Below are positions 18,615-41,165 of a DNA stretch of 64,000 nucleotides, piece by piece. The stretch's first letter is position 1. The number at the start of each line of letters is the position of its first letter. Origin of the DNA: an uncultured virus (IMG/VR IMGVR_UViG_3300038679_000356) (lineage: Duplodnaviria > Heunggongvirae > Uroviricota > Caudoviricetes); IMG/VR virus record IMGVR_UViG_3300038679_000356; one strand, written 5' to 3'. Under the pieces are notes generated by a model, which worked only from the letters and a program-made list of their open reading frames with translations, was not told the DNA's origin and did not search any database. The position numbers and the translations under genes were made by a program.

Positions 18615-21608
18615 TTACGGGGTTCCTCCATCGATATCTCTTGTACCGATAGAGTCTGGATCACCACCGTCAAAATAACGTGTAGGACTAGCATCAGGAT
18701 CACCGCCATCCAGAACTGAGATATTACTTTCGAGTTCGCCGACTTCGTTGTACGTCGATGGTTCGCGTAATAAACGGTCGAGGACGGTGATTTGATCATC
18801 TGTTGGGATTGTTCCACGGAAAAATATGACGACACCCATGGTACCCTTCGCATAGTAAGTGGCATATCTTCCAAATGCGATTGGAAAATTTTCGTCATAT
18901 ATATCTGTCTGAAATGCGGTAACAGGAGAGCCCTTAACTCCATTTGATATGGGCGAATATGCAGTGCCGTCTCGACGAACTCCTGTTGTAGCCGGTACAT
19001 TCAGGCTTAGGCTGCTTCCTGTGACTAATGCGTAGTTGGTGTCGGGGTTAGTGACACTGCGGAAATGCCATAACGATGTATTATTTACTTGTTGCTCAGC
19101 CTCTATTGCATCGGGACGTGTACCTGTGCTGAAATGAGTGCTAATAAGTCCGCCACGGCGTGACAACTCTGCCGTAGTCCATAACACTAACCAACAAAAG
19201 TCATCGGTTCCGACTTTCTTAAACATGTCCGTCATATCTGTGCCAAACGGAAGAGTTGCATAATTGGAACCGCCCAAGTACAATCCGTCGGGCGTTATGG
19301 TTGCAGACGTATTTACTAAGTCAAATCCTCCGATCATATCTGAAAGGAATCCGCTACGGAACCACATAGCCTTCATATATGCAGGCCACGTTACTTCCTC
19401 AGTTGGCGCGGGGGCGTCAGCATTGCCAATGTAGCATTCTAGCTCGACATCGGAGCTGCGGGTTTCGCCATCTTGGACAGCGTAATCAAGCAGGTACTCT
19501 GTAAATGGTGCCTGCAATACCGTGTACTGGTCCAGAGTGTAGGAGGTCGGTGGGGTGAAATCATCCTCACCGTACCTTGCAATTCCCTTCGATATGCGGA
19601 CTTGTCTGATCTTCCCATTGAACGAGGTTGAATTGTAGAATCGTCCAATCTCTAAAGCGGCTGATAAACTAGCGAGTGTGATACTATAAGTGACCGTCTT
19701 TCGATGCACGCCTAAAGTATGCAGATGAAAGTCATTTCCTGACCTCGAAACAGCAACATGTACCCATTGCCCAGTAGGTGTTGCTACGTTTGACTTGAAT
19801 ATTGCTGGACTAATCACAATGGAACCACCTGAAACTATGTAGAATGAGATATTACGCCCATCTACATTGTCATAGTTGAACAGGTGAATACGGTTATTCG
19901 CGTCGCCCATCTGTTGGATGATACCCATTTCGGCGTCAGCATTAAGATAGACCCACGCTTCCCACGTGAAATCTTCGTCAGCCATTGTCCAATCATCGGA
20001 ATCCGCAAAGGAGGCGTAGCCGCTCGTAAATTCTAGCCCATTTACGCCAGGACCAGCGACAAGAGAGGTCGTAGAAGCATTCCCATGTCTGCTGTAGAAT
20101 CCATTGAAGCTCCCCTTGAGCCAGAAATCGCAAACACCGCTGTATGGATTAAGACCACGAAGCGGGGCGGAGTACGGGACGGCAACGCCTGCTTTGGCAA
20201 CGCGGAAATCCTGGAGGGCGTAGCGATAGCTGGCGGCGGGAGGGATGGAAGTGCCTTTGAGAATTCTCAGATTTCTGACTGTATACGCCAGTGTTCCACC
20301 AGAGCCGCCATCATACCGAGCACCGATGTAGACGCCCAAGTTTCCGCCAATGGACGCGGTAGCGTTGCCGCTGCCGTTCGTGAGTTCTGTTCCGTCTACA
20401 TACAGCTTCGGATTTGCGGAAGGCGTAATGACCAACGTCAGCTTTCGCCATTCATCGTTATTCAGACCGGAAAAACTCCATGTCCGTGGTGCCGACGCAC
20501 TGTCGCGATATCCGAAAATGTTGTTACCCATCTGCCAATAAAGGTCGAAGAATTTATTGGCACCGCCGTCTTGATCAGATGCAAGAAGATACCTACCGGC
20601 TGTTCCGGTGCCGGACCCTAACTTTACCTCCCATTCGATCACGGCAGTGGTGAGACTCTGGAAGTCAACAAGCTGTGCTTGTCCAGTGATCCCGATTTTT
20701 GCCTGATCCGTTCCGGCAGGTAGACTGAGCCCATCAGCAGTGATAGCAGCATTCCCAAACAGCGTCAAAGAGTGCGCAGTTCCCGGTGCGTACTTTGCGA
20801 CACCAAATCCGGCATCGGTTGTATGCCCCTGGAATGACCAGTTGCCGACCTCGAATGGATTGTACTGGAAGAGGTCGTGGGGGAGGACCATTGAACCGCG
20901 TGCGGGCGGGGTGAAGTTGGCGGTATAAAGAGCTTCGCCTTTTAGTATCAGCAAGTCAGCCATAACGCCATGTCCACCGCCTTCGTTCCCTGTCGAACAA
21001 GACGCCATAAGCCCGAGATCTTTTGCCACATCGGCTAGTGCGCCGGAATACGTATCGGTGTCTTCTACCTGTCCGTTGACGAACAGCCGCCATGTGTTAC
21101 CAGATCGTGTAACTGCGACATGATACCACGTATCCAGCACAATTGTAGTAGTTCCTTGCAGGGCTGGATCGCGCCAAGTACCGCCTATATTTGAAACGAA
21201 ACGGAACTGCTGGTTCGTGGTTTCCTGACTGTTTATGATCCAACCATCCGTACTAGTTGCCGACCGCTTCCCTATGAAGTTATTCCACCCAGTTATCCAG
21301 CCGGTCGGCTTTACCCAAAACGCGATAGTTAGGTCTGCAGATGCAAAATCGAGATTGGCGGAATACGTGACCTTCGCCCAATCAGATTGTGCAGCACTAT
21401 GATACCCGTCCGTGTCAACGTATCCGCTGCCTTGTGCCGTCACCACATGCGGAACTCTCACCGCCTTCTCATCTGAATCTCCGTAATCGAACAGTCCATA
21501 GGTGTCAATGCCCGACTTCCGCAGTGGGAGCTTCAAGACTTCTTTCGGAGCGTGTAGTCCGGGGATGGTGAAGCGAAGTGGTATAGGCATGTCGGTGTAG
21601 GTACTCAT
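18615..21608 (-). CDS. Multi-LamG/ConA-like lectin adhesin with interrupted DUF2341-like scaffold and C-terminal DGG repeats
   Basis: TIAFWVK..WYHVAVTRSG..LFVNG, FTWEAWVY..WVHVAVSRSG..G.I..VRISKG.ARY...FTPP; ends LDGGDP..FDGGDP..IDGGTP. Confidence 0.85.
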   Translation of the reverse strand: MSTYTDMPIPLRFTIPGLHAPKEVLKLPLRKSGIDTYGLFDYGDSDEKAVRVPHVVTAQGSGYVDTDGYHSAAQSDWAKVTYSANLDFASADLTIAFWVKPTGWITGWNNFIGKRSATSTDGWIINSQETTNQQFRFVSNIGGTWRDPALQGTTTIVLDTWYHVAVTRSGNTWRLFVNGQVEDTDTYSGALADVAKDLGLMASCSTGNEGGGHGVMADLLILKGEALYTANFTPPARGSMVLPHDLFQYNPFEVGNWSFQGHTTDAGFGVAKYAPGTAHSLTLFGNAAITADGLSLPAGTDQAKIGITGQAQLVDFQSLTTAVIEWEVKLGSGTGTAGRYLLASDQDGGANKFFDLYWQMGNNIFGYRDSASAPRTWSFSGLNNDEWRKLTLVITPSANPKLYVDGTELTNGSGNATASIGGNLGVYIGARYDGGSGGTLAYTVRNLRILKGTSIPPAASYRYALQDFRVAKAGVAVPYSAPLRGLNPYSGVCDFWLKGSFNGFYSRHGNASTTSLVAGPGVNGLEFTSGYASFADSDDWTMADEDFTWEAWVYLNADAEMGIIQQMGDANNRIHLFNYDNVDGRNISFYIVSGGSIVISPAIFKSNVATPTGQWVHVAVSRSGNDFHLHTLGVHRKTVTYSITLASLSAALEIGRFYNSTSFNGKIRQVRISKGIARYGEDDFTPPTSYTLDQYTVLQAPFTEYLLDYAVQDGETRSSDVELECYIGNADAPAPTEEVTWPAYMKAMWFRSGFLSDMIGGFDLVNTSATITPDGLYLGGSNYATLPFGTDMTDMFKKVGTDDFCWLVLWTTAELSRRGGLISTHFSTGTRPDAIEAEQQVNNTSLWHFRSVTNPDTNYALVTGSSLSLNVPATTGVRRDGTAYSPISNGVKGSPVTAFQTDIYDENFPIAFGRYATYYAKGTMGVVIFFRGTIPTDDQITVLDRLLREPSTYNEVGELESNISVLDGGDPDASPTRYFDGGDPDSIGTRDIDGGTP

Positions 21609-22792
21609 GGGAACGCCTCCGCAGGTATCGTAAGCGAGAATTTATATGACCATTCGCTGTATGGTGTTGGAGTATTGCTTGAGCTGGATGAGCTGGATGA
21701 GCTGGATGAATAAATTGAACTATTACTACTTGACGAGCTACTTGACGAGCTACTTGACGAACTACTTGACGAACTACTGGATGATGGACCTGATCCTGAT
21801 TTTGCCGCTAAGCCCATCCAATTTACTGATGGTCCAAGAGCAGTTAGCGCTCCAGAGACGGGATTTATTTTACACAGTGTTCCAGCATAGGTTCCATCAT
21901 GCCTTACGCCATATAGCTCTCCATTATAAAAGCACATATCTCTGAAATTATATCCAACATTTACAGGAGTACCGAGAACTCCAGTTTCTAATGTGATTGG
22001 ATAAATATTATTACTTGCGCTATAATAAGCGTTTCCACTTCCTTGATCGTAAGCCAATCCTTGACCTTGCGTGAATTCTAGTTGGGTTATATAAGTTATT
22101 GCCGCATTTGACAAATTCATTGAATGATATGAATATGAATTACATCCACTGCCAGTTATATAGCCTACGCCATTTTTAATGGTAAGTGACGCCAATGGAC
22201 ACCATGCGCCACTATTTCCAATGAAAGTATACGCTCCAGTCAATTGGTTTAACTCTACGAGAGCCCCATATTCTATCGGTCCATCATAAGTATTGACTAT
22301 GCCGTATAGTTTATCGCTCGATGGATCGTAAGCTAATGAACGAACAGAATTGGTATTAGTTGCTCCAATAAGTGTCCTGTCTCCAGTGGATGTATCGACA
22401 GAATATAAATTAGAGCCGGAGTCGGTTGCAAACATCATACCAGGAACTTCAGCCGCAGACGAACTACTACTTGATGAACTTAATGATTCGCTGGATGAGC
22501 TTGATAAACTGACAGAAGAATAACTTGACGATGACATTGAACTACTGGACGGACTTGATTGACTTGAATTACTTTCTGATGAACTGCTAGAAAAACTACT
22601 TGACTTACTTCCAGAAGAACTGGATGAAAAACTGGATGAGCTGGACGGTGTTTGACATGTAAGACAATCTGAAAAAACATCTTGAACAGATGGAATAACC
22701 ACTACGCCAGGACCAGTGCCAGAATAATAATAGCACTGTCCATTTATGCGAATCACTTCGCCATAATATTGATCTGCTACAATTGGGTCCAT
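21605..22792 (-). CDS. Cys-socket + poly-Ser + beta-propeller adhesin
   Basis: N-terminal G..IRING.CY...CLTC; LYSVD..TG..T.IG / SLAYD...LYG blades; two Ser tracts. Confidence 0.75.
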   Translation of the reverse strand: MDPIVADQYYGEVIRINGQCYYYSGTGPGVVVIPSVQDVFSDCLTCQTPSSSSSFSSSSSGSKSSSFSSSSSESNSSQSSPSSSSMSSSSYSSVSLSSSSSESLSSSSSSSSAAEVPGMMFATDSGSNLYSVDTSTGDRTLIGATNTNSVRSLAYDPSSDKLYGIVNTYDGPIEYGALVELNQLTGAYTFIGNSGAWCPLASLTIKNGVGYITGSGCNSYSYHSMNLSNAAITYITQLEFTQGQGLAYDQGSGNAYYSASNNIYPITLETGVLGTPVNVGYNFRDMCFYNGELYGVRHDGTYAGTLCKINPVSGALTALGPSVNWMGLAAKSGSGPSSSSSSSSSSSSSSSSSSSSNSSIYSSSSSSSSSSSNTPTPYSEWSYKFSLTIPAEAFP

Positions 22793-22793
22793 A

Positions 22794-23492
22794 TTACGGA
22801 ACTCCAGTTGGCGTAAAAGTTATATCGAATGTTGCACCATAAAGTCGGAATCCATCCGTACCGTCTATTCCGTTAAATAATTGTACTGACATGCCATAAG
22901 ATAGTGAATACCAATTCCATGTGCTTGAGTCGTAGTAATACCAATCATATCCGTCATAATTCCAGAATGAAGAATATCGATGTCCATCAGATGGTCCAGA
23001 GATATACTCATAACCAGGTCCAGAATCGCCTGGTCCCTCACGATATATTGACGTTTTCCACTGCCATATGATTCCAGACGTAAATGCGCCAGTGTCAGTA
23101 TATCCACTCATTGTCGCATATTCTGGGAAATTATTTGCAGACCCTCCAAGAGGATAATTTAGAGTAACGGTAGGATAACTCGCCCCAAAAGAACTTGATG
23201 AGCTTGAGCTTTGTGAGCTTGTCGACATTGATGATCTTGATGATGATAATGACATTGATGAACTACTGGACGACAAAGGCGTGCATGGCAAATAAATGTA
23301 ACCTATCGTTCCGCTGCTAGATGAACTACTGCTAGATGAGCTTGGGAGCGTTGAACATTCCTCACAAGTTTCATATGCCCCCTCAACAGTAGCTGGCGTC
23401 AACGGCTCATTAGTCATTGCATCAAAAACATAACAGATCCCGTCAACCTTTATGACGGTCCCTGCATTGTAATTAATGATGATATTTGCCAT
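22794..23492 (-). CDS. Cys-socket + poly-Ser + YIYLPC strand + Tyr/Trp-rich domain
   Basis: GTVIKVDGICY...CEEC, Ser tract, GYIYLPC, Ser tract. Confidence 0.75.
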   Translation of the reverse strand: MANIIINYNAGTVIKVDGICYVFDAMTNEPLTPATVEGAYETCEECSTLPSSSSSSSSSSGTIGYIYLPCTPLSSSSSSMSLSSSRSSMSTSSQSSSSSSSFGASYPTVTLNYPLGGSANNFPEYATMSGYTDTGAFTSGIIWQWKTSIYREGPGDSGPGYEYISGPSDGHRYSSFWNYDGYDWYYYDSSTWNWYSLSYGMSVQLFNGIDGTDGFRLYGATFDITFTPTGVP

Positions 23493-24434: not shown

Positions 24435-24776
24435 TTAGACTGGCTCTTCAGATCCACATACAAAACAAGTTACTTTTGATGCAGTTGTTGTGACTCCCAC
24501 CAAAGACGAAGCATCATCAATTACGATTCCTTCTCCAGAAAAATCAAGAACGACTGTCTCATTAGATGGCACTGGAATATTCCAAAGAATGTAAGTATTA
24601 GTTCCATCATTCATCTTAATTACAACCACTTCTTCAGAAGTGTTAATGTTATGTAAAATGATGTTGTGAATTAATCCTTTAGTCGATGCTGGAGGATCAT
24701 AAATTGTTCCTTCACTACTTGGTAACTGTATAAACGCCAATTTTTTTCTAGTAAACGCCATATTATTCTCCTTCAA
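24435..24776 (-). CDS. Small beta-sandwich fibre adaptor protein (putative)
   Basis: TIY..P....IHNIILHN...VP.NET...G.E pattern, which I recall from ~110-aa phage fibre adaptors. Confidence 0.55.
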   Translation of the reverse strand: MKENNMAFTRKKLAFIQLPSSEGTIYDPPASTKGLIHNIILHNINTSEEVVVIKMNDGTNTYILWNIPVPSNETVVLDFSGEGIVIDDASSLVGVTTTASKVTCFVCGSEEPV

Positions 24777-26202
24777 CCGCCATCATGACGGATATTATTT
24801 GATCCTTATTATCTTCACTGCCATATTCCGCTAAGGTTGTCCATCCACCTGTAGCCATTATTGACGCAATCATATCAGATTCGCTGAATGGAATTGAGTT
24901 AGAACTGCTGGACGAACTACTACTTGATCCATTAGATGACGAGCTACTGTGTGATGAGCTACTGTACGACGAACTACTCGACGAACTACTTAAAGATGAA
25001 CTAGATGAACTCGAACTGCTGGACGAGCTACTACTGGATGACGACGAATAATAGTCCAACGGCGCGGAGAATTGATATGTAGTTAAATCCTCGCGTTCTA
25101 CCAATGAATCGGTCGGATTGTTAAGGTAGGTTGTGCCCAGAGCACTTAGGAACCCAATTTCACCTGCCTCCCCTCCGCCAGGGAGAGAATCATTATCGAC
25201 AGGTTGAATTTCAGTCTGTAGTGGTTGCGAAGCATCTGAATCTATAATTTCAATAAGATCATCTTGTTCGTTTAATGTGTCGGTCGGATTATTGACATAG
25301 GTTGTTCCCAATGCACTCAAAAACCCGATTTCACCAGTTTCTCCACCGCCAGGAAGCTGATTATTGTCAACTGGTTGTGGCGTGATCTGCAAAGGTTCAA
25401 AGAACGCCTCCTCTTCAATATCTGTTCTTGGGAATTGTTCAAAGAAAGACGTCATTTGGAATGCGTCAGGATGTAATTGTATTTGTTGCGGTTCGGCGTA
25501 CGCAGAGGAACTGCTGCTTGAGCTGCTTGAGCCAATACTTGACGAACTGCTACTGGATGAATAGCATGGAATATATCGATAATAAGGCAATATTACGCCG
25601 CTGCTGGAACTACTAATGCTGGAGCTATTACTACTGGAAAATGAAGACGAACTGTACGACAAACTGGATGAACTGGATGAGCTTGATGAACTCGACGACA
25701 AACTTGACGAACTACTATTTGATGAGCTAGATGACAAGCTCGATGAGCTTGAGGAGCTACTACTGGAGATTGACGAACTGCTACTGCTCGACGAACTACT
25801 GAAACTTGATGAACTACAACTGCTTGATGAGCTACTGTTTGATGAGCTGGAACAGCTACTTGAACTTGATGAATTACTGCTCGATGAGCTTGAATAGCTA
25901 CTTGAACTTGATGAACTTGACGAACTACTAGAACTTGATGAGCTACTGCTCGATGAGCTGGAACAGCTACTTGAACTTGATGAACTTGACGAGCTGGATG
26001 ACGAACTGGATGATGAACTGGATGAACTTGAACTAAAACATTTTTTGTAGATAAAAATAGATCCACACTCGGCGCATGAAATACAGGAAAATTCCACAGA
26101 CGTGTGCGTTGGCTTCTTGTGAGTGAAGCCAAGTTTGGTGTAACAGTACCCTCCAATGAGTACAGTCGTACCCATATCGGTGGGAAGTACGATCCTGTCC
26201 AT
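24763..26202 (-). CDS. Extremely Ser-rich scaffold protein (Cys socket, two YxYxxC-type strands, acidic 2x repeat, C-terminal hydrophobic helices)
   Basis: One Ser-rich tract of about 140 residues; QPVDN..LPGGGE.GEIGFLSALGTTY.NNPTD twice. Confidence 0.75.
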   Translation of the reverse strand: MDRIVLPTDMGTTVLIGGYCYTKLGFTHKKPTHTSVEFSCISCAECGSIFIYKKCFSSSSSSSSSSSSSSSSSSSSSSSCSSSSSSSSSSSSSSSSSSSSSSYSSSSSSNSSSSSSCSSSSNSSSSSSCSSSSFSSSSSSSSSSISSSSSSSSSSLSSSSSNSSSSSLSSSSSSSSSSSSLSYSSSSFSSSNSSSISSSSSGVILPYYRYIPCYSSSSSSSSIGSSSSSSSSSAYAEPQQIQLHPDAFQMTSFFEQFPRTDIEEEAFFEPLQITPQPVDNNQLPGGGETGEIGFLSALGTTYVNNPTDTLNEQDDLIEIIDSDASQPLQTEIQPVDNDSLPGGGEAGEIGFLSALGTTYLNNPTDSLVEREDLTTYQFSAPLDYYSSSSSSSSSSSSSSSSSSLSSSSSSSSYSSSSHSSSSSNGSSSSSSSSSNSIPFSESDMIASIMATGGWTTLAEYGSEDNKDQIISVMMAVEGE

Positions 26203-26314: not shown

Positions 26315-29300
26315 CTATCCAGAACACGCATTCGCGCATGTATTATAGTTGGTGTATGGTCCTGACACATATTCATAACTTGCGTAACCAAGACCAGGTA
26401 TGTATTGACATGCATTAAATCCACCAGCAGCAATAATGTCGAATCCACTAACACATCCTTGTGTTTCTTGAGGTATGGTTGTCCAGCAACCAGTTGCTCC
26501 ACCCATTTCATACCATAATCTGGATATAACACAGTAGGTAGCATCTGGATCTACATAACCACACACGCAATCTTGCAAGCCATCGAATGACGGTGGGGTA
26601 TAGGAACCTGTGGCACCAAGCGCCTGTGTGCAGGTCTCATATTCCCCAATGTCAGCGGCAAGGTTGACTGTATAAACCGCATGGCAATAGTCTGGTTCAT
26701 CTTGATAGAAATTCCACCCTTCATTGTATGGGTTTTCACCTTCCTCAGTAAAGACCTCATCAGTCAGTTGCCAACCACCATCAGGGCAGCCGTACCAAGC
26801 AGCTAACCAAGCGCGATATCCATAACAATCAAAACTTTGACTTCCAGAGCTACTGGAAGAAGAAACAGCTTCAGAGCAACAACAATTTAGATACCATAAC
26901 CCTTCATATTCATTACACGTGCCGCCACAGGAAGAAGTCCATCCCCAACTCTGGCAATATGAATCAACGCAAAGGATAGACTTGGCGGCAGCACATTCGC
27001 TATAACTGTCGTACGAATCCATAAACCCGCCATCTATACAATTCTCGCCACCATCGCTACAATTTTCCGGGGAATAACATGGGTCTTCTGTCCAGTTTGG
27101 AGAAGGTGCAGTTCTGACTACGGAACGGCAAAATTCTGTGCCAGATTCAGATAATCCATCGACCGTTAAATTTTCACCAGATCCAATATATCCACCACTC
27201 CACGTGCAATCAGCCTCTTCATCATACCAGAAATAAGCCCAATCAAGCGTTCCTTGATCGCAGTACCAAACTCCCCATCCCTCAAGTAGAAATGGATTTG
27301 TGCAATTTTCACAAGCTGTTTCTTTATCAAGATAGTAATCACCACCAGGATTCCATTGTGAATCTGTGTCGGGAGGATCAGTTGGACAACATTCGGCAGC
27401 AGCACTACTACTTGAACTGCTACTCGGACACTCACAAGCCGGAGGACAATCACCTTCAAATGGACCACAAACAACTTCATCAATATATCCAGGAAGATCT
27501 ACACAACCACCAGCAACTGGAGGATTTGGTGTACATTCACTACCTGCATAACAACCAAGTATTAGAAATGATCTATCACCAGGATTTGTACATGGATCAC
27601 CAGGACCAACCCAAACATTTAAGCAGTAGTATTGTTCTGTTATCTCACCACTGCTACTATAGCTGCTACTACTATAACTACTGCTACTGTAACTGCTACT
27701 ACTGTAACTGCTACTACTGTAACTGCTACTACTGTAACTGCTGCTTGATAGACTCGATGAACTTAATGATAAGCTCGATGAATTTGAAGAACTCGATGAA
27801 TTTGAAGAACTCGATGAATTTGAAGAACTCGATGAACTTGAACACACGCATTCAGTAAGGTCTGTTGGCAAGTCAGGTCCGGCTGGCCAATTAACGCAAT
27901 CATCTCCGCCAACACAAGGAGGAGTTCCAACATTACATTCCGCATAGGAATAAATACATAACTCTCCCTCTTTACCTTCAAATTTCCAATCGTGATTACT
28001 TGATTCACAAAGAGATGAGTCTATGCATTCGGCACCCTCTCTGGAAATTTCGCTCCATGAATCAGAAACACAATCGTATGCGACAGACCAATTGTACAAA
28101 CATAATGTTTCGCATGGGTCGTCCGACCATGAGGCGCTTGGGGTTAATTGAACCGATCGACATTGCAATCCACCTTCATTAACTGTGGATCGTATTGTTC
28201 CGGCTTCACCGTCTGGTATTGATGATGTTGAAGCCCATGTACAGGTGCCATCATCATAGCTATATGTCCAGAAAATATTTTTATCGCAGTACCACTTTTC
28301 ATATCCATCCAATTTGAATGGTTCTGCACATACCGCGCAAGCACCGCTTTTACTCGAATAACCACCTTGTGGCGTCCAATATGATTGACTATCAAGAGGA
28401 TCATCCGGACAGCAATTCTGCGAAATCCAGTTCGGTTCACTTGGAGAAGATAAAGTAACTGTTCTACAGGGTTCTTCGGTGGAATTAATGATTGAGTCGA
28501 TATCAGTGACTGTATCACTTGCTACATAAGCGCTTGTCCAAGTGCAAGTGCCATTATCTTCCACATATTCCCACCTTAAATTATTTCTATCGCAGAACCA
28601 GTAATTGTAACCATCCATTTTTTCTGGTTCACAGCATACCTCACAAGCTGCTGCGAGCGTAGAGTAACCACCCTTAACATTCCAATTTGAGCTATCTCCA
28701 GTTGGATCATCGCCACAGCAACAAACTTCTTCACTGACAGAAGGCGTTGGGGCAATCAATTGTACGGTCCGGCAAATAAAACCATCACCATACCGCTTAC
28801 CATGCACGTCAGACGCCTCGCCTGGCTCTACAAGAGATTCTGACACCCATTCACATTCACTTTCTTCATCGTCCCAGGTATAGGATAATCCAACGCTGGA
28901 CGGAGTGCTGCTACAAAAATATCTTTCACTTGATCCAACTGATAACTTGTAAACTGGAATAGCTCCGACAATACCACATTCTTCACATGCAGTTTCTTTA
29001 TCTGGATACCCTTCTGCTATAGTCCAGTATTCGTCGTTTTCAGGAGGATCGTTTTCACAATAGCACGCTTCTTTAACAGGATCAATTGAAGGAGCGGTAA
29101 CTTCAAAGGTGCGACAGGTGTACGTTTCACCCCCAATTTCATAAGTCGAGGTTACATCTCCGGTGAACCCAGTGATAATTCCTTCTACTCCGGATTCCCA
29201 TGTGCAACCATCATCATTTACCTCAAAATAATCGAAAGTGGGGAATTCATTGCACCAATAATATGTATTTCCATCAAAAACGAATGAATATACGTCACAG

Positions 29301-30454
29301 TAGCCGCACTCTTCGCAGGCAACTTCTTTTGATTCATAGGAAGTTTGCGGGCTCCAGTATGCATTCGACTCAGACGGATCGGTAAGGCAGCAGTCTTTTG
29401 GTCTCAAACAACATTTGATATGAGCCCGCCATTGAGTATTCTCTGAGTCTTTATCATACCAAATAAATTGTCCACATATTTCATGAGTAGCGTCTGGTCC
29501 ACAATTATAGATATCATTACATGTCATTTCAAGATCGGTTCCCGCCATGTCGTTTTCTGCTTCTTGGCGAGTTGAATAATCTTCAAAATCAGCCGTATGA
29601 CATGATTCACACCCAGGACTGTCCACACACAGTGGCTCAGGATCAGAAACACCACAAACCCGACGAGTAAATGGAGATAGAGTTGGAGTAGGAAGAGAAA
29701 CGATTCGGCATAATGTCAAATCTCCGCCGATAGGTCCATATTTACTTTTTACGAGTATTGTTGAGCCAGGGGGACCAATTTCATTTTCGACATTCGACCA
29801 AATACAATTTCCATCTATTAGAAAATATCCCCATCTATAACTTCCAGACCCACAGAAAAACAGTCCGCCTTCAACTTTGAAATCCATTTCACTGCCAGTG
29901 TACTCCCAAACTGGACCTTGACCTCCACATGCTGTACAAGCATCTTCTAAGGTTGCATATCCATTTGTTAATACCCAATGTCCACCGAAATCAGAGGGAG
30001 GATCGGTAGGGCAACATGTATCGTCATCATCATTGTCTCCATCATCTGGTGGTGGATATGGAGAAGGGGGGTACGGAGGTGGTGGTTCTGTTGGCGGGAA
30101 AATAGGGGGGTTCGTTGGGTCGTCGATAGTCATTGATGATGACGACGATGCAACAGTGCTGCTGGAACTGCTGTACAAATGACTGCTGCTAGAACTACTG
30201 CTATATGGATGACTACTACTAGAACTACTACTATTTGAGTTGCTACTGTTTGATTTACTACTGGAGCTACTGTTAGAAAAACTTCCCGAGCTACTTGGTT
30301 CAATGGCGCAGTCTTCGCACGTTTCTACGATAAGATTTGGGTTTCCTGGATGATCAGGCTGTCCGGGTACGTTCGCCTGCAGGAGATAGTAACATTCGTT
30401 ACCTATCCTGATTACAGGACCGTAATTCGTTCCTAGCCGTATTGTAGAAGTCAT
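26315..30454 (-). CDS. 1379-aa Cys-rich, acidic, multi-repeat protein with Ser linkers
   Basis: Six ~100-aa C-x-x-DP..W...Y.....AC..C...C...C.W...CR repeats plus three other duplicated Cys modules. Confidence 0.8.
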   Translation of the reverse strand: MTSTIRLGTNYGPVIRIGNECYYLLQANVPGQPDHPGNPNLIVETCEDCAIEPSSSGSFSNSSSSSKSNSSNSNSSSSSSSHPYSSSSSSSHLYSSSSSTVASSSSSMTIDDPTNPPIFPPTEPPPPYPPSPYPPPDDGDNDDDDTCCPTDPPSDFGGHWVLTNGYATLEDACTACGGQGPVWEYTGSEMDFKVEGGLFFCGSGSYRWGYFLIDGNCIWSNVENEIGPPGSTILVKSKYGPIGGDLTLCRIVSLPTPTLSPFTRRVCGVSDPEPLCVDSPGCESCHTADFEDYSTRQEAENDMAGTDLEMTCNDIYNCGPDATHEICGQFIWYDKDSENTQWRAHIKCCLRPKDCCLTDPSESNAYWSPQTSYESKEVACEECGYCDVYSFVFDGNTYYWCNEFPTFDYFEVNDDGCTWESGVEGIITGFTGDVTSTYEIGGETYTCRTFEVTAPSIDPVKEACYCENDPPENDEYWTIAEGYPDKETACEECGIVGAIPVYKLSVGSSERYFCSSTPSSVGLSYTWDDEESECEWVSESLVEPGEASDVHGKRYGDGFICRTVQLIAPTPSVSEEVCCCGDDPTGDSSNWNVKGGYSTLAAACEVCCEPEKMDGYNYWFCDRNNLRWEYVEDNGTCTWTSAYVASDTVTDIDSIINSTEEPCRTVTLSSPSEPNWISQNCCPDDPLDSQSYWTPQGGYSSKSGACAVCAEPFKLDGYEKWYCDKNIFWTYSYDDGTCTWASTSSIPDGEAGTIRSTVNEGGLQCRSVQLTPSASWSDDPCETLCLYNWSVAYDCVSDSWSEISREGAECIDSSLCESSNHDWKFEGKEGELCIYSYAECNVGTPPCVGGDDCVNWPAGPDLPTDLTECVCSSSSSSSNSSSSSNSSSSSNSSSLSLSSSSLSSSSYSSSSYSSSSYSSSSYSSSSYSSSSYSSSGEITEQYYCLNVWVGPGDPCTNPGDRSFLILGCYAGSECTPNPPVAGGCVDLPGYIDEVVCGPFEGDCPPACECPSSSSSSSAAAECCPTDPPDTDSQWNPGGDYYLDKETACENCTNPFLLEGWGVWYCDQGTLDWAYFWYDEEADCTWSGGYIGSGENLTVDGLSESGTEFCRSVVRTAPSPNWTEDPCYSPENCSDGGENCIDGGFMDSYDSYSECAAAKSILCVDSYCQSWGWTSSCGGTCNEYEGLWYLNCCCSEAVSSSSSSGSQSFDCYGYRAWLAAWYGCPDGGWQLTDEVFTEEGENPYNEGWNFYQDEPDYCHAVYTVNLAADIGEYETCTQALGATGSYTPPSFDGLQDCVCGYVDPDATYCVISRLWYEMGGATGCWTTIPQETQGCVSGFDIIAAGGFNACQYIPGLGYASYEYVSGPYTNYNTCANACSG
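27691..27742. repeat. 15-nt tandem repeat AACTGCTACTACTGT (encodes YSSSS on the minus strand)
   Basis: Three perfect units plus degenerate flanking copies. Confidence 0.85.
27774..27836. repeat. 18-nt tandem repeat CTCGATGAATTTGAAGAA (encodes SSNSSS-type units)
   Basis: 3.5 perfect units. Confidence 0.85.
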
Positions 30455-30455
30455 G

Positions 30456-30501
30456 CAGGTTGTACCAATGGTTTGAGTCTATCATTCCATTGTACAACCT
30501 G
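30456..30501 (-). promoter_or_regulatory. Long hairpin ending 1 nt before the start codon of 26315..30454
   Basis: CAGGTTGTACCAATGG / CCATTGTACAACCTG: 15-bp stem with one bulge. Confidence 0.6.
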
Positions 30502-31140: not shown

Positions 31141-31391
31141 TAGACATATTCCAGTATTTTGCCAAATTGGTTTGAGGTTGGATCGACAATTTCTCCAGCG
31201 ACTCCAACAAGCCACCAATGAGTGTACCATTTGCCATCGTTTCCCGACAAAACATGCCCACATTGCCGAATCAATTCTGGGAACTGGTCGCCCATCTCGA
31301 TTGCTGCTTCACGGCATTTTCCTGCGGTGTTACCAGTGCGCCGCCGATACATGTTGATCCATTCGGAATATTCTTTTGGAAGTTCGCTCAT
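31137..31391 (-). CDS. Minimal transglutaminase-like Cys-His-Asp protein
   Basis: AGKCREAA...THWWLV...EIVDPTSNQF. Confidence 0.55.
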   Translation of the reverse strand: MSELPKEYSEWINMYRRRTGNTAGKCREAAIEMGDQFPELIRQCGHVLSGNDGKWYTHWWLVGVAGEIVDPTSNQFGKILEYVY

Positions 31392-31945: not shown

Positions 31946-32197
31946 GGCGACCTCCATTCAGGCAAAAATAACCATGCTTGAATATGGTTCTTTACTCCAA
32001 AAAATGCTTAGTCTCCTCTCATGGAAACCCATACAAAATCAACCAACCACCCAACTGTGGAATTATTTTCCCATAGAGACAATGTAGTCGTTATTATGGA
32101 GACAATTTTTCCTCAACGAGACTTCTTCTACGCTCGACGAATAGTCCCTGGCATTCAAAATGCTATCCCTCAGCACATAATCGAGAGGAGAGGGAAA

Positions 32198-32487: not shown

Positions 32488-35427
32488 ATGTCAGAAAAAA
32501 TCATCCTCTTTGGCGAAGATATCCTGAAACGCAACAGTGACGGTAATCTTACTTACGCTGGACGTAAAATTCTTGATGACGAAAACGCACGCTTTGCCGA
32601 TCTCCATGATGTAAATATTCCCTCTGAAATATCTTCTCTTGATTCCGATAAAATCATCAAAGCAAATTACATTTCAGCCACGCCGTATGGAGATGCATCA
32701 TTAGGTAATGTTACCCTATCTTCTCCTGGTCCAATCAACTACTATACCGATTTGATTGCTGATGTTGGGGTCGGCGAAACCGTACTTCCAGTAAGTAATG
32801 CAACAAGTTTTGTGGGAGTTACCCAGGTACTTGTTCATCAAACGCAAAATTACAGATGGCATAACAACACGTCTGACCCTACCGAAAGTAGGATGAAGTA
32901 TGAAATAAGGAATGTGCTTGGCGTCGATGTGGGAAATAATTTGATCGTCCTTGCCGATCCATTGAATACAGCGTATAAATCAGACTCCAATGGAAACAAA
33001 AAGTTTAACACAAAAACACAGATCGTATCTGTTCCGCAATACAATACTCTGACTATAAACGCCTCTCTTTCGTGTAAGGCATGGGATGGATATTCTGGTG
33101 GAATAATTGTTTTTCGTGCTCGCGTATTGAGCGGTAACTCATCCATTAATGTGACTGGATTGGGATTCCGTGGGATAATGACTCCACACGCATATGGAGC
33201 TGGTGAAGGGTGGGATGGATTAGGTGATACGTCATACAATCGAGGTGGTGGTCAAGGTAATGAGGTAGGCGGTTGGAATTATGCCTCTGGTGGACACCAT
33301 GGCGCTGGTGGATCGGTAGGCAATGGCGTAGGTGGTGTCAGTTATGGTTTGGATGATGCGGATTTGGAAACATACCTGACGCTTGGTGGCGCAGGTTGGT
33401 CTGATGCCAGCGCCAACGCCGCCGGAGCTGTGTTAGCCTTCGTAGAATCGTTTTCAACATGGTCAGGATCGTGGATTGCGGAAGGAACGATTGTTGGCGT
33501 GCGAGGCGGTGGTGCTGGTGGTTCGATATTGATCTACACCCCAACCAATCAAGTTCCCAACATCGGTTATGTTTCTGTAGCTGGCGCAGGAACAGCACCA
33601 TATGGCTCTGCTGTTGGCTATCAATTAACAACTCAACCTACGGAAGAACCGGTAAAACAATATGTTCTTGGACAGAAGGTAAGTGCTATATTAGATGCAG
33701 ATAAAGATACAGAAATCCCCACGTCCAAGGGGGTAGCTACATTTGCTCTTGCTCGTGATGGATCTAATTCAATTACCGGAAATCTTATTCCAGACACAGC
33801 AGGAACCAGAGACCTTGGAAGCTCTGAAAAACCATTTCGAGATATCTATGCTTCGGAAGGAAGTATATACCTTGGGGAAAAAGCAATTTCCATTGTTGAT
33901 GACAATATCCACAAAAGTGGTGAAAAAGTCTTGGATACTGGAAATGCATTGTTTGCCGATATTCGAGATGTAAATATTCCGACCACACTTATTCAAGCTG
34001 ACAATAATAAAGTTTTGAAGGCAACGTTTGAAGTAGAGAACGTATATGGTGACGAATCAGATGGAGACGTAACAGTTTCTGGAACCGAAATCATCAATTC
34101 ATATACCGATTTGATTTCCGATGCTTCTGTTGGCGCTACGACTATTTATGTTCGAGATTCATCTGGTTTTCAGGCTGGTAACGAAATACTTATCATCACT
34201 TCGCAGATTTATCGACAAACAACTGTAGATAACCTTGGGTTGTATGAGTTCGCTACAATAGCCGAGGTTCCTACCTCCGCTCAAATCATTCTTTCTGGTG
34301 GTTTGTCGAGAACTTATCTATCTGACGCCAATGGCAATAAAAGCAACAATACAAAAACTCAGATAGTTAAGGTTCCTCAATACGGAACGTTAAATGTATC
34401 TGGAACTATCACCGCTAAACAGTGGGATGGCTACTCGGGTGGCGTCATTGCATTCATGGCAAAAGATCTTGTGGGAAGTGGTTCCATTAGCGTAAAAGGG
34501 AAGGGATATCGAGGGGGAGCGGTAAGCGCCCAGGATGGAGAAGGATGGTTTGGGTCTGATCCCAATGAAGCGGCACAGGGATCTGGACAAGGTCCTGGGG
34601 GAAGTCCGCAATCTTCTGGTGGTGGTGGTCATCTTAATAATGGTTCGGCGGGATCATACGGTGCATATTATGGACTTGCGTATGGATTAACTGTCGATCA
34701 AGTTGAAACTAATATTACGTTTGGTGGCGCTGGTGGAGCCGCTAATGCCAACAATTGGGGTGCTGGAGGAAATAGCGGTGGCATAATTTTTACATACATA
34801 CAAGATCCATCGGTTTTCAACGGTGCTCTTGATGCAAGAGGAAATGATGGTGTTCCTAATTCTGGCGGAAATGGTGGACCTGGCGCTGGTGGAAGCATCC
34901 TCATTTATCATGACACTGTCGTGAGTTCCACGTTGAATGTTCAAGGCGGCGCAGTAACGGGAACTGGCTCGGTAGGGAGAAGCAAGCAAACATCTCCTTC
35001 TCCCGCAACAACCAGACAGTATGAACTCGGCGCGAAAATTTCCACTTCGCTCGACAAAACGAAGGATACGGAAATTCCAACGTCAAAGGCGGTTGCCGCC
35101 TACTGCCTTCTTCCGATGCCTCCTATCACCGTAGACGTCGCGTCAAGAGGATTAACATCAGAAGATTCCGGTCATATTCTCGACACTATCTATGCCGACG
35201 GGACGGTGACGTATTCGATTGATGTAGGTGTGATGGCGCAATATGACGAATTCATCATCAATCGCCTTACCGTTCAATCTGTTTTAGTTTCATCGGCGAC
35301 TGGTGTCACAATTAACGGAATCGATGGAGCGACCATAGAAATTACAGATCAGTTTGGAATGATCACCATTCGAATGTACGGACCGAATAACGCGCAGGTA
35401 ATCGGCAACTTTACGACGGTGATCTGA
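32488..35427 (+). CDS. Tail fibre with two ~370-aa Gly-rich-ended repeats, a shaft motif and a C-terminal gp10-like domain
   Basis: YGD.S.G.VT...YTDL..D...SD.NGNK..NTKTQIV.VPQY...WDGYSGG twice; GNLIPD...DLGS.EKPFRDIY. Confidence 0.8.
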   Translation: MSEKIILFGEDILKRNSDGNLTYAGRKILDDENARFADLHDVNIPSEISSLDSDKIIKANYISATPYGDASLGNVTLSSPGPINYYTDLIADVGVGETVLPVSNATSFVGVTQVLVHQTQNYRWHNNTSDPTESRMKYEIRNVLGVDVGNNLIVLADPLNTAYKSDSNGNKKFNTKTQIVSVPQYNTLTINASLSCKAWDGYSGGIIVFRARVLSGNSSINVTGLGFRGIMTPHAYGAGEGWDGLGDTSYNRGGGQGNEVGGWNYASGGHHGAGGSVGNGVGGVSYGLDDADLETYLTLGGAGWSDASANAAGAVLAFVESFSTWSGSWIAEGTIVGVRGGGAGGSILIYTPTNQVPNIGYVSVAGAGTAPYGSAVGYQLTTQPTEEPVKQYVLGQKVSAILDADKDTEIPTSKGVATFALARDGSNSITGNLIPDTAGTRDLGSSEKPFRDIYASEGSIYLGEKAISIVDDNIHKSGEKVLDTGNALFADIRDVNIPTTLIQADNNKVLKATFEVENVYGDESDGDVTVSGTEIINSYTDLISDASVGATTIYVRDSSGFQAGNEILIITSQIYRQTTVDNLGLYEFATIAEVPTSAQIILSGGLSRTYLSDANGNKSNNTKTQIVKVPQYGTLNVSGTITAKQWDGYSGGVIAFMAKDLVGSGSISVKGKGYRGGAVSAQDGEGWFGSDPNEAAQGSGQGPGGSPQSSGGGGHLNNGSAGSYGAYYGLAYGLTVDQVETNITFGGAGGAANANNWGAGGNSGGIIFTYIQDPSVFNGALDARGNDGVPNSGGNGGPGAGGSILIYHDTVVSSTLNVQGGAVTGTGSVGRSKQTSPSPATTRQYELGAKISTSLDKTKDTEIPTSKAVAAYCLLPMPPITVDVASRGLTSEDSGHILDTIYADGTVTYSIDVGVMAQYDEFIINRLTVQSVLVSSATGVTINGIDGATIEITDQFGMITIRMYGPNNAQVIGNFTTVI

Positions 35428-36917
35428 TGATTAGGGCGACGACATATGGGATCATCGCCTCCACACGTGGATTGCATCCAACTCCAAGTAGCTCGTCAAG
35501 TTCATCGAGCTTATCAAGTCTATCTAACTCGTTAAGTTTATCAAGCTTATCAAGTTCTAGCAGTTCGTCAAGCTTGTCAAGCAGTAGCTCGTCTAGTCTA
35601 TCATCCAGCTCATTAAGCGGTAATTCATCAAGTTCCAGTGGCTCTTTTATTTTATCCAGCTCATCCAGCAGCACTAGCGCCAATCCGTATATTAAACATT
35701 GCTGGTGTTTGATAAACAGGTATGGTCTCGGTCCGTCAGAATATGACGTCTTCTCCTCGGGGTGCGATTATCTCGTTGACATCCAGTTGTTCCCAGATTA
35801 TCCGAAGGTGGCGTACGTTAATAGATATTCCATTGGAGTTGACGCAGTAACATACGTTTATAGCGATATCCCGACTTGCAACACTGGCGATGAATGTTTT
35901 GAAGGGGTCGGTTTCTGCAGTAATATGTTTGATCCATCATCAAGTTCATCAGGATTATTAAGCTCATCGTCGAGTTCTTATAGTTCACTCAGCTTATCAT
36001 CCAGTTCATTAAGTAGTAATTCATCAAGTTCGTTAAGTTTGTCACTCAGCCTATCATTAAGTTCGTCCAGTTTGTCTTCCAGTAGTTCTGCTGGATCTAC
36101 CACGATTGGGTTTATTGTATCTGGTTCCTCATTCTACGACAATCCAAATGGATTGTATTGCGAAATCGGAACTTATAAAGCGCACCCACTCTACCATTAT
36201 AACAGTGGTAGCGCTGACTTCTATATTTATTGGGATGACACTTGTACTGGTTATGGCTACGTTGGACCGACCTGGTGGATTGGATACACTGGCTACGGCG
36301 AAGACTACGGCTGCCCAGCAGCTATCGACTACGTTGATGGATCTTCTGCACTACCGCCAACAGGTCTTTGGAGTTATGACGCGACATTAACACAGACCAC
36401 ATGTGGCGCTACATCGAGCAGCTCAAGTTCATTAAGCAGCAGTTCATTAAGCAGTAATTCATCCAGTTTATTGAGCTTGTCCTCCAGTTCATTTAGTTTA
36501 TTAAGCTCATCGAGTTTGTCGAGTTCGTCGTCCAGTTCTTTAAGCTCATCAAATAGCAGTAGTTCTTCCAGTAGTTCATCTAATTCCAGCAGCTCGTTGA
36601 GCAGTTCCTCATTTTCAAGTAGCTCGTTAAGCAGCTCAAGTAGATCCAGCAGTAGTTCGTCCAGCAGTAGTTCGTCCAACAGTTCGTCAAGTTCAAGTAG
36701 TTCGAGCAGTTCGTCGAGTAATTCCAGCAGCTCATCGTCACTAACTTATGAACAAACCATTTCCTATATCTGGACAGGCAACCTTCAACCGACACCACGT
36801 GAACTAGATGTGGATGGTGGCACGCCCACTACCACTAATTATGAAACAGATTTTTATGGCGGAACGCCAAGTGATACCGAACAAATTATTAACCTAGACG
36901 GCGGCGGCCCGCTGTAA
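35427..36917 (+). CDS. Ser-rich protein with GIIAS N-terminus and C-terminal DGG repeats
   Basis: MIRATTYGIIAST; three Ser tracts; ends VDGGTP..FYGGTP..LDGGGP. Confidence 0.75.
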   Translation: MIRATTYGIIASTRGLHPTPSSSSSSSSLSSLSNSLSLSSLSSSSSSSSLSSSSSSSLSSSSLSGNSSSSSGSFILSSSSSSTSANPYIKHCWCLINRYGLGPSEYDVFSSGCDYLVDIQLFPDYPKVAYVNRYSIGVDAVTYVYSDIPTCNTGDECFEGVGFCSNMFDPSSSSSGLLSSSSSSYSSLSLSSSSLSSNSSSSLSLSLSLSLSSSSLSSSSSAGSTTIGFIVSGSSFYDNPNGLYCEIGTYKAHPLYHYNSGSADFYIYWDDTCTGYGYVGPTWWIGYTGYGEDYGCPAAIDYVDGSSALPPTGLWSYDATLTQTTCGATSSSSSSLSSSSLSSNSSSLLSLSSSSFSLLSSSSLSSSSSSSLSSSNSSSSSSSSSNSSSSLSSSSFSSSSLSSSSRSSSSSSSSSSSNSSSSSSSSSSSSSNSSSSSSLTYEQTISYIWTGNLQPTPRELDVDGGTPTTTNYETDFYGGTPSDTEQIINLDGGGPL

Positions 36918-39129: not shown

Positions 39130-39164
39130 TCAGGCAATTTATGAGAATATTTACGATGGGGTAA

Positions 39165-41165
39165 TTGGTTATGGATAATTTATACCTACTTACTGACGAA
39201 GGTGATACCATAAGAGTAGCTGATGAATGCTATCAGCGTGGCTCCGTAGTTATGGCAATACCTGATACTCCTACGATTCAGGAGGCGTACAGTGAATGCG
39301 CTGAATGCTTGCAGGGATTGGTCGGCATCGAAACCGATGTCAATCAATTATCGGTCATGGAATCCAGCCAAGCGTTTTTCCAAGTAAGGCTCACTAGGAA
39401 GCCATACTATCCCGTCATGGTGCATGTTGAGAGAATCTCTGGAGATGTCGACCTGAATATAATCGGCGTAAGATATCTTCATTTCGATCAGGAAAATTAT
39501 GGTGAATACCAGACTGTCATCATCCAGGCAGAACTGGATTTGGACCCATCTCCTGGGCAAGCCGTCTTTCGTTGTTCTAGCGAAGGGCTACCTGGAGTCT
39601 ACGCAGATGTTACCGTGACTGAAGATGATATTGATATTCTCAATATTTCTGTTTCAGCCACTGCCGTATCAATTCCTGAAGGCGGTACTGCCACATTCCA
39701 GGTGAGGGTAACGGCAATGCCGCTCGAAGATCTTGTCGTTAGTGTTTTTCGGTATTCCGGCGATACCGACATCACGGTGCAATCCGGCAGCAGTTTGACT
39801 TTCACATCGGTAAATTGGAACGTATACCAGACCGTTACACTGGCCGCGGCGGAAGATCCAGATGCCGGTTCGGGAACCGCCATCATAAGATGTTCCTCAC
39901 CTGGAGTGACCGACAAAGATATCACGGCTACTGAAGTGGAAAACGACACCACGCTCACCGTGGCAGCCAATACCGGTGGTACGACCAATCCGAGCGGGGC
40001 GGTGGTTGTCACAAAGAATGTAGCCAGGGCAATAGCGGCAACAGCCAATACTAATTACTATTTCAAGCAATGGGCGGCAACAAGCGGATCGCCAGCCATT
40101 GCCAATGTTTACAACGCAAGCACAACCGCCACGATATCGGCTCCAGGTACGGTAACTGCCAATTTCGTCTCCAATTACTACGGAAACGGTTCTGACGGAG
40201 ACGCCACCATATCAGGTGCAAACACCGTACTGAACACATCAACAGATCTAACGGCGGATATCGCATCCGGCGCGACAACGATCACCGTTCGATCCACGAC
40301 CGGTTTCACTGCCGGAAAATCAATCATCATCCACCAGACCCAATCTTATCGTCCTTCTGACGCAGCCTCCGGAAGATGGGAAATCAGAACGATCAATACG
40401 ATTGTCAATTCCACATCGTTGACGGTTACGTCCGGAGTATCAAGGGCATATTATTCCGATAGCGATGGGAATAAGCAAAGAAGTACCAAGGCACAAATCA
40501 TACTTCTAAAACAATACAAAACTCTAACAATTTCTGGTTCAATTACATGTTCTGCCTTTGATGGCTACTCAAAAGGCATCGTGGCAATTTCCTGTTGGAA
40601 CCTGGCTGGAGCTGGAGCAATTCATGCCAATGCAAAAGGTTTTAGGGGAACGACAATGGGTGAAGGATGGAGAGGTATAGGTGATGGCACGGTAGTTAGT
40701 AATGGAATAAAAGGCGGAGGAGGCTTTGACCAAACCGGAGGCGGAAATAATCAAACCGGTGGCGGCGGCGGACACTTAAATAATGGAACTTTTGGCAGTG
40801 CGGCTAATACTTACGGAGGGACGGCTTACGGCATTACAGAGGCGAATGTATATACCCAACCTATGCCAGGTGGTGGTGGATCTGGATTAAATAACCCAGG
40901 ATACAGTGGTGGTGCCGGAGGTGGAATTATTCTTCTGATGGTAAATAATCCTGCAAGCTATACCGGTTCTCTCAGTTCTACGGGAGGCAATGGTGCTGGA
41001 GGGGATTACAATTGTGGTGGTGGAGGTGGTGCAGGTGGATCGATTGCTGTCTTTACACCATCATCTTTCTCCAGGACGATGACGGTGACTGGCGGGTTGA
41101 GATATGACGGCGGTCCAGCCGGAGCTGGTTCCGTTGGCAGAAAGCTTGTTAGAATCCAAGCTTAA
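39165..41165 (+). CDS. Cys-socket + 2 Calx-beta-like domains + InlB-B-like repeat + Gly-rich module
   Basis: GDTIRVADECY...CAEC; LTFTSVNWNVYQTVTLAAAED; GGTTNPSG..ATANTNYYFKQW; third copy of the YG.GSDGD module. Confidence 0.8.
   Translation: MVMDNLYLLTDEGDTIRVADECYQRGSVVMAIPDTPTIQEAYSECAECLQGLVGIETDVNQLSVMESSQAFFQVRLTRKPYYPVMVHVERISGDVDLNIIGVRYLHFDQENYGEYQTVIIQAELDLDPSPGQAVFRCSSEGLPGVYADVTVTEDDIDILNISVSATAVSIPEGGTATFQVRVTAMPLEDLVVSVFRYSGDTDITVQSGSSLTFTSVNWNVYQTVTLAAAEDPDAGSGTAIIRCSSPGVTDKDITATEVENDTTLTVAANTGGTTNPSGAVVVTKNVARAIAATANTNYYFKQWAATSGSPAIANVYNASTTATISAPGTVTANFVSNYYGNGSDGDATISGANTVLNTSTDLTADIASGATTITVRSTTGFTAGKSIIIHQTQSYRPSDAASGRWEIRTINTIVNSTSLTVTSGVSRAYYSDSDGNKQRSTKAQIILLKQYKTLTISGSITCSAFDGYSKGIVAISCWNLAGAGAIHANAKGFRGTTMGEGWRGIGDGTVVSNGIKGGGGFDQTGGGNNQTGGGGGHLNNGTFGSAANTYGGTAYGITEANVYTQPMPGGGGSGLNNPGYSGGAGGGIILLMVNNPASYTGSLSSTGGNGAGGDYNCGGGGGAGGSIAVFTPSSFSRTMTVTGGLRYDGGPAGAGSVGRKLVRIQA

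Follow-up and report, generated by a model that had tools for sequence, protein, structure and literature searches.

Here we describe what is likely a real and previously undescribed split-domain docking system, encoded in a 64-kb window (the whole stretch analysed, taken out of one 340,706-bp contig) of the uncultured Caudoviricetes record IMGVR_UViG_3300038679_000356. One component, which we call the socket, is a three-cysteine module at the N-terminus of five window proteins; the other, the plug, is an isolated strand of the form YxYxxC that stands next to or between poly-Ser tracts. Comparison of protein sequences indicates that the socket is a precise N-terminal truncation of a four-Cys domain and that the plug motif is that domain's first strand. 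On balance we lean towards the reading that plugs complete sockets, and we consider assembly in trans, with several proteins collected on plug-bearing hubs, to be possible at somewhat short of even chances. The original prediction, made from the letters of the window, had proposed that the lone strands supply sockets with a missing strand and a fourth Cys; it is partly supported, and is strengthened by comparative data and by two confident AlphaFold2 (AF2) models.

Sockets and plugs in the window

The socket pattern G..[IVL].[IVL]...CY.{15,35}C..C was searched in all six frames of the window and gave exactly five matches, every one at the N-terminus of a long open reading frame (ORF) and at the five starts originally proposed. 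The first, p395 (21605..22792, minus strand, 395 aa), has its three-Cys socket in residues 1-46 (22655-22792), followed by a poly-Ser linker, a central domain of ~210 aa, a second poly-Ser tract and a short tail. In p232 (22794..23492, minus, 232 aa) the socket (residues 1-46, 23355-23492) is followed by a Ser tether (23304-23354), an orphan plug, a further Ser tether (23169-23282) and a C-terminal domain of ~125 aa. The 479-aa protein p479 (24763..26202, minus), of which 43% is Ser, continues from its socket (residues 1-46, 26065-26202) into an adjacent plug, ~150 aa of poly-Ser, a second plug, two repeats of ~60 aa, more poly-Ser and a 36-aa tail. The largest, p1379 (26315..30454, minus, 1379 aa), places a Ser linker after the socket (residues 1-49, 30308-30454) and then a large protein with 100 Cys, including six repeats of ~105 aa. 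The fifth, p666 (39165..41165, plus, 666 aa), passes directly from the socket (39165/39171-39308) into further domains with no Ser linker and ends in a Gly-rich C-terminus.

Aligned, the five N-termini are 23-33% identical to the first, with M1, G11, C20, Y21, C43 and C46 invariant. The claim that each holds three Cys stands for four of the five modules and fails for p479, which has an additional fourth, C40. The sockets begin 18-21 residues before the Cys of the CY pair, and because in-frame stop codons lie 0-9 codons upstream of all five starts there is no hidden upstream strand; the first strand, YxYxxC, is missing from all five. For p666 an ATG at 39171 is more likely the start than 39165, since it gives MDNLYLL, matching the family's MD-x-[IL]-x-L beginning, and the modal Met-to-Cys spacing of 19. 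The Pfam scan covered the 17 window proteins of 18615-43524 and the remaining window genes were compared with PHROGs only; no Pfam family was found over the socket module, with only weak below-threshold matches elsewhere in p395 and p479, and no PHROG family for any of the five proteins.

Three plugs were found in the window where they had been predicted, all on the minus strand and flanking poly-Ser. GYIYLPC of p232 (residues 64-70, 23283..23303) lies between two Ser tethers. IFIYKKC of p479 (residues 49-55, 26038..26058) stands 2 residues after CxxC and adjoins poly-Ser, and a homologue, P0005, has VYVYLPC at the same position. YYRYIPC of p479 (residues 207-213, 25564..25584) is an orphan in the middle of poly-Ser. 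Within the window ORF set (~19,958 aa) the looser pattern [YFW].[YFW]..C occurs eight times; three of these are the plugs and two are in Cys-rich p1379.

The six repeats of p1379 share CC-x-x-DP...W...GY...AC-x-x-C...C...C-x-W...CR, with more Cys-rich segments at the C-terminus; they have no Pfam or PHROG family, and the idea that they are divergent four-Cys units was rejected (hhalign probability 0.1). Upstream of the p1379 ATG, at 30455-30478, the in-frame preceding codon is TGC (Cys), with TQTIGTT before it and no ATG, GTG or TTG after the upstream stop. The position of this Cys codon is probably a coincidence.

A family of truncated and complete domains

A profile of the five window sockets was searched against 1.84 billion representative proteins. 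It matched 176 at E<=1e-3 and nine at E<=1e-10, with a lowest E of 3e-23, and all 176 representatives are metagenomic or viral. Counts for the family are drawn from 150 listed of these 176 matches. Its core can be written G-x-[VI]-[IV]-[KR]-[VI]-x-G-x-C-[YWF], then 20-25 residues, then [YF]-x-x-C-x-x-C; the core regular expression is matched by 131 of the 150 and by all five window N-termini. Most profile matches fall in residues 1-55 of proteins of widely differing length, and a low-complexity linker directly follows the socket in 69/105, while some proteins have 4-7 copies of the module. Ten family clusters that were looked up were all metagenomic and, where named by their source, carried the label 'hypothetical protein'. 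None of the scanned family members has a Pfam model over the module, and recognisable cargo domains are few: LamG, matrixin, FG-GAP, LRR and CBM-like (Pfam).

The position of a copy within its protein goes with its number of Cys. N-terminal cores contain exactly three in 105/107. Fifteen of the listed proteins have several copies, and there the internal core has a preceding strand that ends in Cys. After removal of nine near-duplicates and addition of five locus proteins, 51/63 internal cores had an extra Cys 13-34 aa before the CY Cys; the unsplit version of the domain, for which the original prediction had suggested a profile search, was thus found. The upstream strand of the internal cores has the consensus N-Y-[KR]-Y-x-x-C-[DG]. 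In one protein (P0154) four units are set apart by Pro/Thr linkers and the strand is always N-terminal of its core, an arrangement that shows the complete unit to consist of the strand and its core, with four Cys in all. When both forms are aligned together, N-terminal copies have their Met1 2-4 residues past the plug Cys, and the distance from Met1 to the CY Cys is 18-20 aa in 82/109 (modal spacing, 19). Internal copies with the strand, N-terminal copies with three Cys and a Met1 placed just after the plug Cys together lead us to read the socket as this domain truncated exactly behind its first strand.

Scans with DNA patterns retrieved few family members. The pattern for G.VI[KR][VIM].G.CY, searched in the genomes of 185,579 species, hit 52 loci with no true member among them (three matches to the regular expression were off-frame), the pattern being narrow enough that absence from cellular genomes is not proven. 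A metagenome scan gave 17 loci, of which five (L016, L018, L019, L021 and L028) had an ORF matching the core; the other 12 had no such match and were treated as chance.

Structure predictions

AF2 was applied to a complete unit from a related locus, L001 (residues 108-185, comprising plug, core and next plug), and returned a mean predicted local distance difference test score (pLDDT) of 90.1 and a predicted template modelling score (pTM) of 0.75. The strands of the model are E6-11 (the plug), E18-22, E30-33, E36-44 and E55-57, and a helix begins at CxxC. The first strand is thus confidently modelled as an integral part of the four-Cys unit. The trailing plug, which belongs to the next unit, is undocked, with a pLDDT of 58 in the last block. 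Together with the internal copies, whose upstream strand brings the fourth Cys, this model bears out the earlier proposal that the three-Cys module is strand-deficient.

The second model covers residues 1-80 of p232 (mean pLDDT 82.6), with core blocks at 88-94. Its plug block reaches 89 and forms a strand (E64-69), between a tether at 56 before it and one at 61 after it. Such a high value for so short a strand would be possible only if it packs on the core, so the model appears to complete the socket with the tethered plug in cis. The original prediction had cast p232 as an 'extender'; the protein does have one socket and one plug, but with the plug docked in cis by AF2 an extender role is not required. 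Both models place a single CxxC at the start of the helix and the other two Cys singly on separate strands.

Fold searches gave no significant match to a solved structure. Foldseek against the PDB had a best E of 2.5, and VIA-align against 48,161 chains a best Z of 3.5, with small ribosomal, Tudor and RbpA-like rows at Z 2-3.3, where Z under 4 is no evidence of a shared fold. A BFVD fold search reached E 0.039, to uncharacterised phage proteins. A PDB sequence-profile match at E 0.073 was discarded as spurious and low-complexity. The ESM Atlas's own model of p232 has a pLDDT of 0.35 and yielded no usable feature match.

Orphan plugs beside sockets in other phages

Four contexts of at least 3.7 kb, namely the window, L001 (within genome G001), L032 (within genome G002) and L019, share one design in which orphan plugs occur beside socket genes. 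G001 is a complete 164,893-bp phage genome with terminal repeats. Three genes in a row there encode proteins with an N-terminal socket (778, 610 and 144 aa), and a profile search of G001 found no N-terminal socket beyond those three. Next to them a 1031-aa protein has no socket; its Ser tracts instead contain three orphan plugs, two reading IAVYEPCD and one LARYIPCD. We refer to such plug-bearing proteins as hubs. A scan of the entire genome for Ser-flanked plugs flagged two of the three hub plugs and none elsewhere, the third, below threshold, being read by eye. L001 also encodes a 759-aa protein with seven tandem complete units, and the cluster adjoins the large terminase gene.

G002 (84% complete) has three sockets at ORF N-termini (216, 250 and 1003 aa) and a 566-aa hub with six orphan plugs on Ser tethers, four of the form I-Y-[IV]-Y-S-E-C and two I-Y-Y-N-Y-E-E-C, followed by complete units. 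In L019 the first gene encodes three orphan plugs (HLVYEC, HELYVQC and NHGYVAC) and no socket, and two socket genes come after it. Among single family proteins, orphan plugs are also present in P0002, P0022, P0038, P0049 (two), P0052 (two), P0094 (two in a row) and P0147.

The orphan strands resemble one another and the domain's first strand. Y-x-P-C is invariant in 5/5 orphan plugs of the two phages represented by the window and L001. Across all the family proteins, poly-Ser tracts enclose twenty short islands; Cys is present in ten of them (eight unique), and 8/8 unique ones have Tyr at -3 of the Cys. Under a strict scan, the 108 kb of the four family contexts contained 10 orphan plugs, and both the rest of G001 (145 kb) and the 819 kb of 67 unrelated loci contained none. 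That short motifs in low-complexity, Cys-containing proteins resemble each other by chance could be argued from the plug being only 6-7 residues long. The five strict socket matches in the window, all at ORF N-termini, the family's profile E-values and the empty control loci make this barely credible.

The hubs also bear on whether the plug always folds onto the socket of its own chain, in which case the split proteins would be circular permutations of the four-Cys domain with no joining role. The p232 model, with the plug docked on its own core over a 17-residue tether, is what such completion would look like, and a plug comes straight after CxxC in p479, P0005, P0015 and P0138. Three to six orphan plugs on proteins with no truncated socket of their own (the 1031-aa hub of L001, the 566-aa hub of L032 and the first gene of L019) argue against completion in cis alone, as do two plugs to one socket in p479, P0094, P0049 and P0052. 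Moreover, a strand 2-6 aa after CxxC in tandem arrays belongs to the next unit, as the linkers of P0154 indicate and the undocked trailing plug of the L001 model suggests. We consider a purely cis system improbable.

Near-identical one-Cys strands arrayed on a single chain could alternatively pair with each other, in the same chain or across chains, in small beta sheets held by disulfides that would gather the Ser linkers into bundles or make fibres oligomeric without any role for a socket. Phage fibres are usually oligomers, and such pairing would be consistent with that state. It leaves unexplained why the tethered strand matches the first strand of the domain, why precisely that strand is lost from N-terminal copies and why AF2 docks the p232 plug, and we judge it very improbable.

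Three observations were made alongside these loci. The tether of the 778-aa socket protein of L001 (5896-8232, minus) is made up of SSPVDV and SSLYEI hexapeptide repeats (DUF1388-like matches) over ~500 aa instead of poly-Ser, before a LamG-like C-terminus. Inside the G001 fibre cluster, a 615-aa protein (L001 14117-15964, minus) has weak, below-threshold Pfam matches to Hint/intein-splicing domains, apparently in two or three Hint-like repeats. An N-terminal segment, ENV..L.E...C.LRCDG.G...C, read by eye, is common to the tandem-unit protein of L001 (16635-18914, minus) and the plug-array hub of L032 (11919-13619, minus), and may fix the hub to the virion.

A proposed docking mechanism

The socket (~47 aa) would be the N-terminally truncated, three-Cys form of an undescribed, beta-rich four-Cys mini-domain of ~60 aa, whose full order would be the YxYxxC strand, a short loop, a strand, the hairpin G-x-V-I-K-V-x-G-x-C-Y, a strand, and CxxC at the start of a helix. 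A tethered strand would insert into the truncated domain, as in donor-strand complementation, and bring the fourth Cys, so that the joint could be locked by a shared metal site or a disulfide. A metal site would be the more likely lock if assembly is cytoplasmic; p1379, with its 100 Cys, hints at virion proteins rich in disulfides. Completion in cis may occur where the tether is long enough, as in p232. Docking in trans would be needed for plugs on socket-less proteins (the hubs of G001, G002 and L019) and for the surplus plugs of p479, P0094, P0049 and P0052, and could bring several distinct fibre proteins, adhesins or enzymes together on a single hub, or link them in a chain. The first plug of p479 has the 2-residue gap from CxxC seen in tandem arrays, where a strand in this position is that of the next unit; it would accordingly seem unable to fold back, and may be offered in trans. 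We infer trans binding and the chemistry of the lock, and also the location of these proteins in the virion, the last from gene neighbours only.

In its broadest form, which we put forward tentatively, the system could be a natural 'tag and catcher' code of large phages. A YxYxxC strand of 6-7 residues on a poly-Ser tether would lock into the 47-aa three-Cys domain, either through a zinc site to which both contribute or through a disulfide between the molecules. Strand arrays would let hubs gather particular sets of adhesins and enzymes (LamG, CBM, metalloprotease), and chains or branches would arise from proteins that combine one socket with one or two plugs. If so, the virion would carry a self-assembling, reprogrammable bouquet, and donor-strand complementation would have been invented independently in viruses.

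Several observations weigh against completion of sockets by plugs. Most family proteins lack any plug, and a plug-like strand directly follows only 6/107 N-terminal sockets, so sockets may be stable unaided or have another partner. Even in complete units the consensus of the plug is loose, with an aromatic residue at -3 in 24/49 and Leu in 10. Cys 80, 117 and 129 of p479 stand alone in poly-Ser without any strand; not every tether Cys is therefore a plug, and these three may have arisen from Ser codons by single-base substitution or be sites meant for cross-linking. The numbers are unbalanced in incomplete records, with five sockets to three plugs in the window, three to six in G002 and two to three in L019. 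G001 and G002 share other genes and are thus related rather than fully independent examples. The loci of the strict-scan control are poor in poly-Ser, so the control partly measures poly-Ser itself. Finally, the putative placing of the p232 plug at the canonical site, with the four Cys clustered, is read from pLDDT and DSSP only.

Some of these points are what would be expected of a plain anchor, a self-sufficient N-terminal handle to a common virion site such as baseplate, tail fibre or capsid, with the lone strands being decayed remnants of tandem units or simple cross-linking Cys. Phage receptor-binding proteins usually combine a conserved N-terminal attachment domain with variable C-terminal cargo, and the present proteins, with their diverse cargo (LamG, matrixin, FG-GAP, LRR, CBM), fit that design. 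Most sockets lack a nearby plug, the socket core of p232 is modelled confidently, and the p479 tether has its lone, strand-less Cys. Decay would not be expected to leave near-identical copies arrayed on hubs (four plus two in G002), nor does it sit well with orphan strands that retain the first-strand motif (the invariant Y-x-P-C and the Tyr at -3), with the pLDDT of the p232 plug, or with a complete genome that holds three sockets and three plugs. We regard a plain anchor as unlikely, and return to plug-socket completion as the reading with which the system is compared below.

Relation to known systems

In chaperone-usher pili, a domain that lacks one beta strand is completed by a strand from another polypeptide, and subunits with one acceptor and one donor chain together. 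The system proposed here is alike in that a supplied strand would complete a strand-deficient domain. Pilins have Ig-like folds and are assembled in the periplasm with a chaperone and usher; the present module is instead a Cys mini-domain of ~60 aa with no solved-fold match, and its donor strand is carried on poly-Ser tethers, sometimes in hub arrays, with a Cys through which a metal or a disulfide would lock the joint. Pfam gave no pilin, chaperone or usher family for the scanned window proteins or family members, nor did PHROGs for the other window genes.

The cohesin-dockerin system of cellulosomes places a small docking module on diverse cargo and uses hubs with repeated acceptor sites and long Ser/Thr/Pro linkers. 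Docking modules on varied cargo, repeat-bearing hubs and long linkers recur here. Cohesin and dockerin are two complete domains, whereas here one proposed partner, just 6-7 residues in a single strand, would complete the fold of the other; furthermore, the family proteins have no signal peptides and are found in phage genomes. There were no matches to the Pfam families of cohesin (PF00963) and dockerin (PF00404) in the scanned window proteins, the 150 family members or the locus proteins.

SpyTag/SpyCatcher, an engineered split of CnaB2, is close in principle: a small beta domain that has been cut short is made whole by a short peptide strand, and an isopeptide bond fixes the two together. Here a short strand would likewise complete and lock a truncated beta domain; the split is apparently natural, and the lock would be a Cys metal site or a disulfide. 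A likeness to Cys4 zinc ribbons lies in the small three- to four-stranded beta structure with four Cys, and ribosomal chains of 44-52 residues, presumably bL33, appeared in VIA-align at Z 2.3-3.3, under the value of 4 given above. Zinc ribbons have two CxxC/CxxH knuckles, unlike the one CxxC at a helix start and two single Cys on separate strands seen here.

Among phages, a functional parallel is offered by Ackermannviridae (CBA120 TSP1-4) and Alcyoneusvirus, whose tailspikes form branched complexes in which several receptor-binding proteins are reported to be joined through N-terminal assembly domains on the baseplate, with 335 N-terminal residues of TSP4 promoting assembly (PMC8825819, PMC11414711, PMC10253068). 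In the proposed system, too, several proteins of one large phage would be joined by N-terminal modules. Those assembly domains are large and gp10-like, unlike a 47-aa three-Cys module whose proposed partner is a tethered strand. The four-Cys module is not a member of the pilin or cohesin-dockerin families and is probably not one of the branched-tailspike assembly domains, for which Pfam and PHROG scans and fold searches, but no direct structure comparison with TSP4, gave no match. No description of such a phage module was found in the literature, subscription-journal papers lying outside the coverage.

If plugs dock in trans, they would represent a new way for large phages to put together multi-protein complexes for host recognition or decoration, with cargo that could be exchanged as long as a 47-aa handle is kept, and the first strand-complementation assembly in viruses as far as the literature searched extends. 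The 7-residue tag and the tiny domain that it would complete and lock might also serve as a minimal protein-ligation pair or coupling tool. The family itself, with 176 representative clusters and no solved-fold match, is a widespread domain defined here without a Pfam model, and even on the conservative reading annotation pipelines could use a new N-terminal anchor domain to identify a class of phage surface proteins at present labelled 'hypothetical'.

Genomic setting

The source of the window is probably a jumbo phage, since p232 occurs in identical form on one contig of the protein collection, 340,706 bp long. GC content is 42-51% across the 64 kb (AT-leaning), and no tRNA genes were found there. 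Pfam and PHROG scans identified functions typical of large phages: a DNA methyltransferase, a DprA-like protein, a sigma factor, an RNA ligase, a Thg1-like enzyme, an NAD-dependent ligase, a helicase and an HslV-like peptidase. The fibre-type neighbours are LamG proteins with 'baseplate wedge' PHROG matches, Gly-rich domains and Mtd_N-type fibre N-termini. No close relative emerged: 21605-30454 had no megablast hit among phage records, IMG/VR did not contain an exact 48-mer taken from the window, p232 matched only itself, residues 1-60 of p479 matched nothing, and a related-locus search with p666 was without a match.

The gene for the HslV/proteasome-like peptidase (31388-31957, minus; Pfam Proteasome, E 2e-6; phrog_1040, E 3e-25) lies between two blocks of fibre genes. 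In the second block, p979 (32488-35427, plus) has, by eye, two copies of a segment in which NSYTDLI.D..VG.T is followed by a Gly-rich region, and this segment also makes up the C-terminal half of p666. The neighbouring p496 (35427-36917, plus; 496 aa, 39% Ser) has neither a socket nor a canonical plug; four long poly-Ser/Leu tracts separate three small Cys-containing domains, and the protein is flanked by p979 and the Mtd_N protein p733. Three ORFs rich in Leu, Glu and Asp (25616-25897, plus; 35411-35683, minus; 36374-36679, minus) lie on the strand opposite poly-Ser DNA and are mirror artefacts of Ser codons, not genes.

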